Origin: Escherichia coli
GTDB taxonomy: Bacteria; Pseudomonadota; Gammaproteobacteria; Enterobacterales; Enterobacteriaceae
DNA length: 64,000 bases
Reading direction: 5' to 3' (one strand)
Assembly: GCF_048403405.1 (NCBI RefSeq)
Contig: NZ_CP183129.1
Shown: positions 2,203 to 6,730 of the stretch, piece after piece
Numbering within the stretch: the first letter of the stretch is position 1
Layout of the letters: each line of letters opens with the position of its first letter
Position numbers and translations under genes: made by a program
Notes under the pieces: generated by a model
The model's input: only the letters and a program-made list of their open reading frames with translations
Databases searched by the model: none
Told to the model about the DNA's origin: nothing

Positions 2203-2359
2203 CTTACACCTCCGCCACTGCATACTTCCCTGCGACAACTTTTTGGTGTCTTCCGGACATTTTTACTGCTCATTTTGAAACCACTAACGGGACAATATGC
2301 AATCCACGGACCACTTGCAAGGCAACACCGCACGAATAGCTTTAACTAAGCTACCGGTT

Positions 2360-2590
2360 TTACGATTTTTTATGCCATTTATCATCATCCCCTTTGGCAT
2401 ATTCATGCTTCACAGCAGCCCAGGCCACTTTATGCGAGGTTTCTTCGCGACTGGCGTCATCACGCCGATCTTCTTTATCTTTATATTGCTCCCATGCGCT
2501 GTTAAACGCTTCTTTATAGATATCCTGAGCATGAGACGGTAGCACGTGCTTTACGCTTTCCGGCAGATCGCTTTTCGTTTTATACGGCAT
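2360..2590 (-). CDS. chaB: Cation transport regulator ChaB
   Basis: 76-aa ORF; size and sequence fit ChaB; lies between chaC and chaA. Confidence 0.85.
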   Translation of the reverse strand: MPYKTKSDLPESVKHVLPSHAQDIYKEAFNSAWEQYKDKEDRRDDASREETSHKVAWAAVKHEYAKGDDDKWHKKS

Positions 2591-2859
2591 CGTTGACTCC
2601 TTTTACAAAGTTGAACATTAAGTGTGGTCAACAATATCCACTCTTGCCAAAACATAAGAATTTTCATGTCAGACTCTTCTTAAGAAACGCTAAAACAAAC
2701 ATTGTCTAAACGCATTGCTTATTTTTATGGCCCGATGAGTAAAAAATCGACAGCGGGGTAAAAATTCGTAAAATGTTACCGATATCCAGACACTTTCTGT
2801 TATTTTTCCTACCTATTTTTTACATTTTCGATAAATTCATCTGCAAAGGGATAACCATA

Positions 2860-3960
2860 ATGTCAAATGCTCAAGAGGCGGTAAAAACCCGCCACAAGGA
2901 GACTTCGCTTATTTTCCCGGTTCTGGCGCTGGTAGTGCTGTTCCTGTGGGGAAGCAGCCAGACACTACCAGTGGTCATTGGCATCAATCTTCTTGCTCTT
3001 ATTGGTATTTTAAGTAGCGCCTTTAGTGTTGTCCGTCATGCGGACGTATTAGCCCATCGCCTGGGAGAACCTTACGGTTCGCTTATTCTTAGCCTTTCAG
3101 TGGTTATTCTTGAAGTCAGTTTGATTTCAGCTTTAATGGCAACCGGCGACGCCGCGCCAACGCTAATGCGTGATACGCTCTATTCAATCATTATGATTGT
3201 TACCGGTGGGCTGGTTGGCTTTTCATTATTGTTGGGCGGACGCAAGTTTGCCACCCAATATATGAATCTGTTTGGTATCAAGCAGTATTTAATTGCGTTG
3301 TTCCCCCTGGCGATAATCGTACTGGTATTTCCAATGGCTCTGCCTGCGGCGAATTTTTCAACCGGTCAGGCGTTACTGGTAGCATTAATTTCTGCGGCAA
3401 TGTATGGCGTATTTTTGCTGATCCAGACCAAAACGCATCAAAGTTTATTTGTCTACGAGCACGAAGATGACAGTGATGATGACGACCCGCACCACGGTAA
3501 ACCGTCTGCCCATAGCAGCCTTTGGCATGCTATCTGGTTGATTGTCCATCTGATTGCCGTTATTGCAGTCACCAAAATGAACGCCAGCCCGCTGGAGACA
3601 TTGCTCGACAGCATGAATGCCCCTGTCGCCTTTACTGGCTTCCTGGTGGCTCTGTTGATTCTGTCGCCGGAAGGTTTAGGTGCGTTAAAAGCAGTGTTGA
3701 ACAACCAGGTCCAGCGCGCGATGAATCTGTTCTTTGGTTCAGTGTTAGCAACCATTTCGCTTACCGTACCTGTCGTCACGCTAATTGCCTTTATGACGGG
3801 TAACGAATTGCAGTTTGCACTTGGTGCGCCAGAAATGGTAGTGATGGTGGCCTCTTTAGTGCTGTGCCATATCTCCTTCTCCACCGGACGTACTAACGTG
3901 CTCAATGGCGCAGCGCATCTGGCACTGTTTGCCGCCTATTTGATGACGATATTTGCCTGA
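2860..3960 (+). CDS. chaA: Ca2+/H+ (Na+/H+) antiporter ChaA
   Basis: Start taken at the internal ATG (2860) giving MSNAQEAVKTRHKETSLIFPVLAL..., 366 aa, polytopic membrane protein with the acidic DDSDDDD loop. Confidence 0.9.
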   Translation: MSNAQEAVKTRHKETSLIFPVLALVVLFLWGSSQTLPVVIGINLLALIGILSSAFSVVRHADVLAHRLGEPYGSLILSLSVVILEVSLISALMATGDAAPTLMRDTLYSIIMIVTGGLVGFSLLLGGRKFATQYMNLFGIKQYLIALFPLAIIVLVFPMALPAANFSTGQALLVALISAAMYGVFLLIQTKTHQSLFVYEHEDDSDDDDPHHGKPSAHSSLWHAIWLIVHLIAVIAVTKMNASPLETLLDSMNAPVAFTGFLVALLILSPEGLGALKAVLNNQVQRAMNLFFGSVLATISLTVPVVTLIAFMTGNELQFALGAPEMVVMVASLVLCHISFSTGRTNVLNGAAHLALFAAYLMTIFA

Positions 3961-4251
3961 CAGTTATATCTCCTCCGATGACAGAAATCGGGGGAGATAA
4001 TATAAATTCCTGCTTATTGTATTTCTTCATACTACCTGAACAGGTTGTTAATCAGAATTGCGAGCCTGTACCAGAACCTGCACGAAACCACTGCAACAGC
4101 TGTTGAAAAGCCGGAATGTACTCTTTATTGCAAACATTTCAGGGATGAAGTGAAGATGAATTGAGACGTAGTATCCACACCAAGCCGGCGTTATCCGGTG
4201 AGGCGCAATGTTGCGGGGGCTTTATCCCTGGTGGCATTGGTTGCTGGAAAG

Positions 4252-4318
4252 AGAAAACCCCCGCACGTTGAGAGGTAAAACCTGACAACAGAACGGGGGC
4301 TAATCTTGAACCATCAAC
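4252..4318 (-). ncRNA. rdl: Rdl antisense RNA, copy 1 (approximate position)
   Basis: Placed about 48 nt upstream of, and antisense to, the ldr start by analogy with K-12 ldrA/rdlA spacing (from memory); the region has complementary C5/G5 stems. Confidence 0.35.
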
Positions 4319-4365
4319 AATTCAAGAATAGCCGCAAAATGTTGTCATTACAACAAGGCGGCTAT

Positions 4366-4473
4366 ATGACGCTCGCGCAGTTTGCCATGATTTTCTGGCA
4401 CGACCTGGCAGCACCGATCCTGGCGGGAATTATTACCGCAGCGATTGTCAGCTGGTGGCGTAACCGGAAGTAA
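4366..4473 (+). CDS. ldr: Type I toxin Ldr (35 aa: MTLAQFAMIFWHDLAAPILAGIITAAIVSWWRNRK)
   Basis: ATG at 4366, TAA at 4471-4473; shorter than the 60-aa cut-off of the ORF track; matches the K-12 LdrA-type peptide. Confidence 0.85.
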   Translation: MTLAQFAMIFWHDLAAPILAGIITAAIVSWWRNRK

Positions 4474-4522
4474 GGTGAAAACGGGCGTCAGGCTGCCGTG
4501 ATGGCAATATGCGCCCGAAACC

Positions 4523-4554
4523 GGCCGCAGGTGTAACAGCCTGCGGCCTTTTTT
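4523..4554 (+). terminator. Rho-independent terminator of ldr copy 1
   Basis: Hairpin ggccgcag(N10)ctgcggcc followed by a T6 run. Confidence 0.8.
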
Positions 4555-4786
4555 GTCTTTATCTCTTCCACAAGTAAATATTGGCAACCCGAGCTGGAAG
4601 CATCATCCAGAGCACTCATGAAACGACTGTAACAGCTGTTGAAAAACCGGAATGCACTCTTCATTGCATACATTTCAGGGATGAAGTGAAGATGAATTGA
4701 GTCGTAGTATCCACACCAAGCCGGCGTTATCCGGTGAGGCGCAATGTTGCGGGGGCTCTATCCCTGGTGGCATTGGTTGCTGGAAA

Positions 4787-4853
4787 GAGAAAACCCCCGC
4801 ACGTTGAGAGGTATAACCTGACAACAGAACGGGGGCTAATCTTGAACCAGAAC
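4787..4853 (-). ncRNA. rdl: Rdl antisense RNA, copy 2 (approximate position)
   Basis: Same placement logic as copy 1, shifted by the 535-bp repeat period. Confidence 0.35.
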
Positions 4854-4900
4854 AATTCAAGAATAGCCGCAAAATGTTGTCATTACAACAAGGCGGCTAT

Positions 4901-5008
4901 ATGACGCTCACGCAGTTTGCCATGACTTTCTGGCACGACCTGGCAGCACCGATCCTGGCGGGAATTATTACCGCAGCGATTGTCAGCTGGTGGCGTAACC
5001 GGAAGTAA
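4901..5008 (+). CDS. ldr: Type I toxin Ldr, second copy (MTLTQFAMTFWHDLAAPILAGIITAAIVSWWRNRK)
   Basis: ATG at 4901, TAA at 5006-5008; differs from copy 1 by two residues. Confidence 0.85.
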   Translation: MTLTQFAMTFWHDLAAPILAGIITAAIVSWWRNRK

Positions 5009-5057
5009 GGTGAAAACGGGCGTCAGGCTGCCGTGATGGCAATATGCGCCCGAAACC

Positions 5058-5089
5058 GGCCGCAGGAGTAACAGCCTGCGGCCTTTTTT
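5058..5089 (+). terminator. Rho-independent terminator of ldr copy 2
   Basis: Hairpin ggccgcag(N10)ctgcggcc followed by a T6 run. Confidence 0.8.
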
Positions 5090-5129
5090 GTATCCGGCCC
5101 CATGAATAAATATCCTCCGGCATAGCCGG

Positions 5130-5815
5130 AGGTTTTTCAAATGCGCCTATAAGGCTCTCTTACCAGCCGCGCCCTAACAGGCGCACACGATCTGACATTT
5201 GCATCCAACTTCGTTACTTACGGCCCGTAAACGGGCTGCCCGGATAGGGAATCGATAACTGCTCTCCCATTTTATCCTCTTCAAGCTGGTGCTTTATGTA
5301 ATCCTGTATCTTCGCCGTGTTCTTACCCACCGTATCGACGTAGTACCCTCTGCACCAGAACTCCCTGTTCCTGTATTTGAATTTCAAATCACCAAACTGC
5401 TCGTAAAGCATCAGACTGCTTTTCCCTTTCAGATATCCCATAAAGCCGGATACGCTCATTTTGGGCGGGATCTCCACAAGCATATGGATATGATCTGCAC
5501 AGCATTCAGCTTCCAGAATCCGTACACTTTTCCACTCACACAGCTTTCTCAAAATACTGCCTATTGCTCTACGCTTCTCTCTGTAGAACACCTGTCTTCG
5601 GTATTTTGGCGCAAAAACTATGTGATATTTACAGTTCCATCGGGTGTGCGCTAAGCTCTTTTCGTTCCCCATTGGGACCCCCTTTTGATTTCTTGTTTGA
5701 CACTTGCAGTTGCCAGACCGCAAGGTGTTTTAACAAATCAAAAGGGGTTTTAATAACTGGCTTAAAGCTGAAAGCTTTCCGGAACCCCCAGCCTAGCTGG
5801 GGGTTTTCTGTGCAC
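5130..5815 (-). mobile_element. IS200-family insertion sequence (ends approximate)
   Basis: Contains a 152-aa IS200-type TnpA and, at its upstream end, the perfect hairpin aacccccagcctagctgggggtt (5783-5805). Sits between the ldr repeats and the kdsA stop, where my recollection of K-12 has no IS. Confidence 0.75.
5214..5672 (-). CDS. tnpA: IS200/IS605-family transposase TnpA (Y1 HUH type)
   Basis: Start at the ATG (complement of 5670-5672) with a GGGGG ribosome-binding site; MGNEKSLAHTRWNCKYHIVFAPKYRR...HIHMLVEIPPK is the classic IS200 TnpA sequence. Confidence 0.9.
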   Translation of the reverse strand: MGNEKSLAHTRWNCKYHIVFAPKYRRQVFYREKRRAIGSILRKLCEWKSVRILEAECCADHIHMLVEIPPKMSVSGFMGYLKGKSSLMLYEQFGDLKFKYRNREFWCRGYYVDTVGKNTAKIQDYIKHQLEEDKMGEQLSIPYPGSPFTGRK

Positions 5816-5866
5816 AAAAAAGCCTTAACGCAGAACGCTAAGGCTTTAGTTTTCAAGCAAAAAAGT

Positions 5867-6730
<864 letters not shown>

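Follow-up and report, generated by a model that had tools for sequence, protein, structure and literature searches.

The elements IS200C and IS200 of Escherichia coli and Salmonella are the closest described counterparts of the IS element examined in this work. They are of the same size (~707–711 bp), contain a single tnpA of 152 amino acids (aa), possess the same left-end terminator hairpin, 5'UTR stem-loop (STnc490) and right-end hairpin, and likewise lack terminal inverted repeats and a target duplication. In IS200, the left-end hairpin acts as a terminator in both directions and halts ~85% of the transcripts that enter the element, the 5'UTR stem-loop forms a translational block on tnpA, and an antisense RNA, art200, is also present (PMC4513863, PMC5435999). 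The element described here shows no substantive difference from IS200C and IS200, and only its location, downstream of kdsA, is particular to a subset of E. coli. The left-end hairpin of a further related element, IS1541 of Yersinia pestis and Y. pseudotuberculosis, shares a 23-nt core with that of the present element, and the right end of IS1541 in its tandem copies (a hairpin followed by ATATTTATT) is the same. IS1541 likewise sits directly after terminator-like hairpins with a T-run, but the first 10 nt of its left end differ (GTGCCCAGAA in IS1541 vs. GTGCACAGAA here), and in Y. pestis it is present at a far higher copy number and also occurs as tandem copies.

The elements IS608 of Helicobacter pylori and ISDra2 of Deinococcus radiodurans, for which "peel and paste" transposition is established, encode homologous Y1/HUH TnpA proteins (E-values of ~1e-19 and 1e-16, respectively). 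Similarly to the IS200 group, they contain subterminal hairpins and insert seamlessly 3' of a short target that lies beside their left end. However, IS608 and ISDra2 carry tnpB and recognize a fixed target (TTAC and TTGAT, respectively) with no need for a nearby hairpin, whereas IS200 is devoid of tnpB and its sites consist of a hairpin followed by TTT(T/A)TT. In the family members that have been studied, insertion takes place 3' of a specific target and single-stranded DNA (ssDNA) is required (PMC2806898); elements of the IS608/ISDra2 type favour single-stranded, lagging-strand template DNA (PMC2806898, PMC5027513). The REP-associated transposases (TnpA_REP or RAYT) resemble IS200 in their association with extragenic hairpins downstream of genes. 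However, RAYTs are single-copy domesticated genes that are flanked by REPs, whereas the element described here is a mobile, multicopy IS.

In the present work, we have analyzed a 64,000-nucleotide stretch of an E. coli chromosome (referred to below as the window), whose region 4600–6400 matches the TUM14771 chromosome with 100% identity. The gene order around the insertion comprises chaA (+), two ldr/rdl toxin-antitoxin repeats (+/−), the IS, and then the minus-strand genes kdsA, sirB1, sirB2, prmC and prfA. The reading that we favour, to which we assign a probability of roughly 93%, is that an IS200C element, oriented like kdsA, inserted once and seamlessly just 3' of the kdsA terminator's T-tract. 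The original prediction had described an IS200-type element with an intact tnpA and the typical hairpins in the interval that separates the ldr/rdl repeats from the end of kdsA, and all of these features are indeed present. The element is intergenic, its left end lying 51 nt from the stop codon of kdsA (3-deoxy-8-phosphooctulonate synthase; 5867–6721, minus strand), which is intact and has the same orientation as tnpA.

The identity of the element is indicated by several independent comparisons. The 713 nt at positions 5105–5817, which consist of the element plus 2 ambiguous nt, are 100% identical to IS200C copies at other loci and in other E. coli genomes, and chance resemblance is thereby excluded. 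The identical region in TUM14771 is labelled in RefSeq as "IS200/IS605-like element IS200C family transposase," and the identical protein is the IS200C TnpA WP_000526135.1. The single tnpA gene (5214–5672, minus strand) encodes a Y1 (HUH) transposase of 152 aa with no internal stop, in which the HUH motif corresponds to H61-I-H63 and the catalytic tyrosine lies in the YxxxQ motif Y125-IKH-Q129. This protein matches the NCBIfam model NF033573 (transpos_IS200) at 147.7 bits (cut-off 55), and its relatives of known structure are 2ec2, 2f4f/2f5g, 2a6m (IS608 TnpA) and 2xm3 (ISDra2 TnpA), with E-values ranging from 4e-23 to 2e-16. An assignment to the RAYTs was rejected, as the match to NF047646 is weak and falls below the cut-off (32 vs. 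80 bits). Within the ~0.7 kb element, tnpA is the sole open reading frame with family matches and tnpB is absent. Hence, judged from its sequence, the element is an intact IS200C and belongs, within the IS200/IS605 family, to the tnpA-only IS200 group; the full length of the element, its intact TnpA and its identity to other IS200C copies also uphold the original view that it is IS200-like and complete rather than truncated.

The structural features at the two ends of the element conform to the same assignment. Terminal inverted repeats are absent, the two ends (GTGCACAGAA... and ...ATATTTATT) not being inverted copies of each other. From position 5815 the left end consists of the ten nucleotides GTGCACAGAA and then the left-end hairpin (5783–5805, minus strand), which has a stem of 10 bp and a folding energy of −18.7 kcal/mol and is followed, on the plus strand, by TTTTCT. 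This hairpin forms part of an RNA region (5682–5805, minus strand) that also includes the long 5'UTR stem-loop and, before it, a second, short hairpin, and that matches the Rfam family RF01405 (STnc490) over its full length (model positions 1–124) with a score of 146.1 bits (gathering score 56). The 5'UTR stem-loop (5679–5747, minus strand) holds in paired form the Shine-Dalgarno region just upstream of the tnpA ATG and is part of a 101-nt fold of −37.2 kcal/mol (z = −4.6). By analogy with IS200, the left-end hairpin and the 5'UTR stem-loop would have retained in this copy their roles in blocking transcription and translation. The right-end hairpin (5114–5132, minus strand; 8 bp, −15.9 kcal/mol) is followed in the sense of tnpA by ATATTTATT, which extends to the end of the element, and this right end is identical in 8 other IS200C copies. 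A sub-threshold match to the 3' end of the Rfam family Ysr202 was also seen over the right-end hairpin (5105–5137, plus strand; 23 bits vs. a gathering score of 315), and the model for this Yersinia sRNA probably includes an IS1541 end.

The boundaries of the element were determined by comparison with empty sites in three strains, viz. 118UI (L132), a K-12-type laboratory strain (L002) and a strain of serotype O169:H41 (L003). The junction was located by visual inspection, and a synthetic query from which the IS had been removed confirmed it. The empty site reads ...GTATCCGGCCCCATG-AAAAAA-GCCTTAACGC..., and the corresponding occupied sequence in the window reads ...CCCCATG-AA-[709 nt]-AAAAAA-GCCTTAACGC.... 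These comparisons delimit a complete element of 711 bp on the minus strand at 5105–5815, with its left end at 5815 and its right end at 5105; due to a 2-nt A/T ambiguity at the junction, the limits 5107–5817 are also allowed (±2 nt). The interval originally given for the element, 5130–5866, is thus superseded, for one of its limits falls inside the right-end hairpin, and at the other end it takes in 51 bp of host sequence, the kdsA terminator included. The synthetic sequence matches strain 118UI at 288 of 289 positions, which indicates a seamless insertion of the kind customary in the IS200/IS605 family. Apart from the two ambiguous nucleotides, the empty-site comparison shows no target duplication, a feature whose presence the original prediction had left to be settled by alignment, and the site is otherwise unchanged; a 2-bp duplication flanking a 709-bp element is a formally possible reading of the same ambiguity. 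The sole mismatch to 118UI is a single nucleotide polymorphism at window position 5866, directly 3' of the kdsA stop codon, where the window has T and the empty-site genomes (118UI, K-12 and O169:H41) have A. Genomes carrying the insertion whose identity to our sequence is 99.9% rather than 100% may differ at this position or at another.

The comparison with empty sites also determines the origin of the terminator that follows kdsA. The original prediction described a hairpin at 5821–5845, flanked by an A-run and a T-run, and suggested that the terminator of the operon may be either native or supplied by the IS. The hairpin exists, as a 13-bp stem at 5819–5847 that folds on both strands, and its 3' arm runs into a T6 tract, the terminator as a whole occupying 5816–5847 on the minus strand and its hairpin beginning 19 nt past the kdsA stop codon. 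Its folding energy is −17 kcal/mol on the kdsA-sense strand, and the fold of the opposite (+) strand, with the tail TTTAGTTTT, is weaker (−12 kcal/mol). A consensus terminator scan did not report this terminator, the reason being that the maximal stem absorbs three T's of the T-run; folding reveals a clear hairpin. Of the two origins suggested, the native one is borne out, since the hairpin and its T-run are present at the same place in all of the IS-free genomes inspected (i.e., the K-12-type, O169:H41 and 118UI strains) and lie outside the IS. That the IS provides the operon with its terminator, either because the 5821–5845 hairpin belongs to IS200 or because the left-end hairpin has replaced a native one, might be suggested by the inclusion of the former hairpin in the interval first proposed and by the bidirectional terminator hairpin that IS200 carries at its left end. 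However, this is scarcely credible given the conservation of the 5819–5847 hairpin and T6 tract in IS-free genomes such as K-12 and 118UI and the position of the IS boundary at 5815, outside the hairpin; the left-end hairpin at 5783–5805 would be at most a redundant second barrier. An IS-derived kdsA terminator is ruled out by the empty-site alignment.

The native terminator is left intact by the insertion. The left end of the IS abuts its T-tract, the T6 run survives, and only the sequence after T6 is changed (CATGGG to GTGCAC). Both the kdsA hairpin and the left-end hairpin of the IS are predicted from sequence and the literature to act as terminators in this strain, and, as the hairpin and T6 are preserved, termination of kdsA would be essentially unchanged. 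The kdsA operon thus keeps its own terminator and there is no regulatory novelty to attribute to the IS.

On its other side the IS adjoins the second ldr copy, which consists of a gene for an Ldr toxin of 35 aa (4901–5008, plus strand), its rdl antitoxin RNA (4788–4853, minus strand) and a terminator (5058–5089, plus strand) with a 9-bp GC-rich stem and T6 that faces the kdsA terminator in convergent orientation. The first ldr/rdl copy is found at lower coordinates (ldr, 4366–4473, plus strand; rdl, 4252–4317, minus strand). At the empty site the T/A runs of these convergent terminators are only ~16 nt apart, and it is in this gap that the IS is located. The ldr terminator is untouched, both coding regions are intact and no coding sequence is affected, and we infer that the IS has no significant effect on the expression of kdsA or ldr/rdl. 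The long direct repeat that contains ldr/rdl (window 4140–5090) is present in 2 copies here vs. 3 in the K-12-type strain (2229–3406 of that locus), and in some genomes that carry IS200 at the kdsA site the match is extended by ~535 bp and covers an additional ldr gene, suggesting that these genomes possess three ldr copies as opposed to the two of the window. Hence, the copy number of the ldr repeat varies independently of the IS. A sub-threshold Rfam match to sok over ldr, below the gathering score, was set aside.

Other copies of IS200-group elements were also examined. No further IS200 copy was found within the 64-kb window, and independent copies were therefore drawn from other genomes. 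Eight other IS200C copies from different loci and genomes all show the same junction, viz. a hairpin, a T-run and then TT|GTGCAC (8/8). One of them is carried by a plasmid and one separates lacZ from lacY, and the others lie downstream of nagE, clpA, yfeX, uhpT, sgrS/sgrT and a prophage lom-like gene. When the window copy is included, a hairpin and T-run, as judged by eye, are found at the left end in 9/9 E. coli copies. A search of species-representative genomes with the 23-nt left-end hairpin yielded 120 stretches, from taxa including Y. pestis (IS1541), Vibrio, Brenneria, Pluralibacter, Edwardsiella and several gut metagenome-assembled genomes (MAGs). A hairpin and T-run ending ≤12 nt from the junction is present in 111 of the 127 unique left-end flanks (87%), compared with 119 of 3000 random 60-mers from the same loci (4%), a lenient control for which gene 3' flanks would be a stricter substitute. 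Among the 16/127 flanks that do not match this pattern, several do contain a hairpin, but one that has a mismatch or a larger loop. The consensus at the junction is TTT(T/A)TT|, and the commonest distance from the GC-rich stem is 6–7 nt; since the motif TTG served to locate the boundary, the T/T at the two junction-adjacent positions is in part circular. The left end abuts TT in every copy examined.

These results indicate that the kdsA terminator is no accidental neighbour of the IS, since such a hairpin and T-run adjoin 111/127 junctions and constitute the typical site for the IS200 group, and the native terminator is probably the reason for the location of the element at kdsA. Terminator-like stem-loops were reportedly proposed as insertion hot spots for IS1541 by Odaert et al. 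in 1998. Terminator-like sequences are also over-represented upstream of IS elements, most strongly for the IS200/IS605 family (bioRxiv 10.1101/2025.07.22.666184), and the statistical signal in that work was the only account of terminator targeting by IS200 that the literature searched provided. The association of IS200-group insertions with terminators has thus already been reported and is not new, and the present locus represents a clean, textbook case of an IS200 landing right after an intrinsic terminator. Insertion after terminators means that genes are rarely disrupted and that the element is shielded from outside transcription, which helps to explain why it is tolerated.

A resemblance between the target and the element itself was also observed, as the right end of the element (hairpin ... 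TTTATT|) is similar to the junction consensus. In Y. pestis NCTC5923, the left ends of tandem IS1541 copies (loci L077, L078, L080 and L124) lie directly after the right-end hairpin and ATATTTATT of another copy, an arrangement that looks as if the right end itself had served as the insertion target. We tentatively suggest, while considering it rather doubtful, that IS200-group transposases may choose their sites by structure, a folded ssDNA terminator (hairpin plus TTT(T/A)TT) mimicking the right end of the element (hairpin ... TTTATT); no description of such a mechanism was found in the literature searched. If true, this mimicry would explain the ~87% of junctions that abut terminators across several phyla, as well as the tandem copies, which would be insertions after the right end of another copy. 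Repeated insertion at one and the same nucleotide after a terminator (e.g., that of kdsA) could then occur, and IS200 markers would be prone to homoplasy as a result.

The mechanism of the insertion at kdsA can be outlined from the better studied members of the family. As inferred from IS608 and ISDra2, the element would have moved as a single-stranded circle and integrated into ssDNA 3' of its target, the kdsA-sense strand probably being exposed as lagging-strand template with its terminator hairpin able to fold. The GC skew of the plus strand is negative throughout the window, which indicates that the strand in the sense of kdsA and tnpA is the G-rich, leading-type strand, i.e., the template for lagging-strand synthesis; this fits the bias of the family. 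After the insertion, any read-through from kdsA would meet the left-end hairpin of the IS before reaching tnpA, so that the transposase would stay silent, and the insertion would probably be neutral and inherited as a marker of a clade.

Information regarding the distribution of IS200 bears on both its activity and its value as a marker. The original prediction regarded IS200 as rare, which does not hold in E. coli, where full-length copies (≥80% of the query) are found in 2063 of the 5426 complete genomes, a single genome having as many as 35 matching places. The insertion at the kdsA site is present in 258/5426 complete genomes (4.8%), including an O102:H6 strain and many human clinical isolates; among the matches listed, all carriers have the same junctions and an identity of at least 99.8%. 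The carriers have 12–29 places per genome that match the 961-nt junction query, a count to be read in light of the fact that this query also holds some ldr-repeat sequence. Near-identical empty sites exist as well (e.g., in 118UI and PCN033). The description of IS200 as nearly immobile agrees with how it is regarded in the laboratory (PMC4513863), but its spread in this lineage has been recent, as the large number of identical copies shows. The dearth of transposition events seen in the laboratory, which has made IS200 notoriously difficult to study in this respect (PMC4513863), and the fixation of this copy in 258 genomes could also be taken to mean that it is a dead relic, truncated or inactivated and kept only by descent. 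We consider this very improbable, because the element is full length, its 152-aa TnpA is intact with the HUH and tyrosine motifs, its sequence recurs with 100% identity at many other loci, and the carriers hold many copies. This combination of an intact, full-length element with many identical copies argues instead for recent activity of this exact sequence.

Another explanation for the persistence of this copy is that it has been co-opted by the host, a regulatory benefit being derived from its 5'UTR RNA, from art200 or from its position between kdsA and ldr/rdl. Salmonella RNAs processed from the 5'UTR of IS200 tnpA affect gene expression (PMC5435999), and the STnc490 region is intact here. 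However, such an RNA would be made by any of the many identical copies and would have no tie to the kdsA locus, both flanking transcription units keep their own terminators, and the literature searched contained no data of this kind for E. coli; co-option is thus, like the dead relic, most unlikely to account for the copy. Seamless insertion of IS200C behind the kdsA terminator, followed by inheritance, is the interpretation that we retain, and a single origin of the insertion in all 258 genomes is assumed. As the insertion is common to a subset of genomes, it is usable as a marker at the level of a clade (258 genomes), though not at the level of a strain, and the marker value originally proposed for it is narrowed to this extent. 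Because IS200 targets terminators, independent insertion at the same nucleotide is conceivable, and this is a caveat for its use. RefSeq already names this known IS at the kdsA site, and the importance of the element beyond careful annotation is small.

Some of the other copies encountered in our analyses have features of their own. In E. coli strain 7/2 (locus L004), IS200C is located in the lacZ-lacY intergenic region, oriented against the lac operon and adjoining an intergenic palindrome; owing to its terminator hairpin, which is bidirectional, this copy could exert a polar effect on lacY and lacA. In E. coli O158:H23 (locus L009, 330–400), IS200C is found right after a hairpin and T-run downstream of sgrT, this hairpin presumably being the sgrS/sgrT terminator. 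The plasmid p98190-contig_3 of E. coli strain 98190 (locus L011) contains an IS200C that is 99.4% identical to the window copy and lies, after a hairpin and T-run, between two pseudogene fragments of an antirepressor (KilAC and KilA-N domains), which looks like an insertion inside a coding sequence.

The left-end hairpin core is conserved far beyond the enterobacteria. Exact matches to its 23 nt are present in MAGs assigned to Oxalobacter, Bacillota, Peptococcaceae, Mailhella/Desulfovibrio, Elusimicrobiaceae and Saccharibacteria (loci L012–L015, L017, L019–L034, L036–L040, L056–L061, L064–L068 and L070–L072). Most of these matches lie ~15–230 nt from a contig end, which suggests that MAG assemblies break at multicopy IS200-like elements. 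The left-end leaders vary among these MAG copies, examples being GTGAAACGAA and GGTTAAAAGAA.
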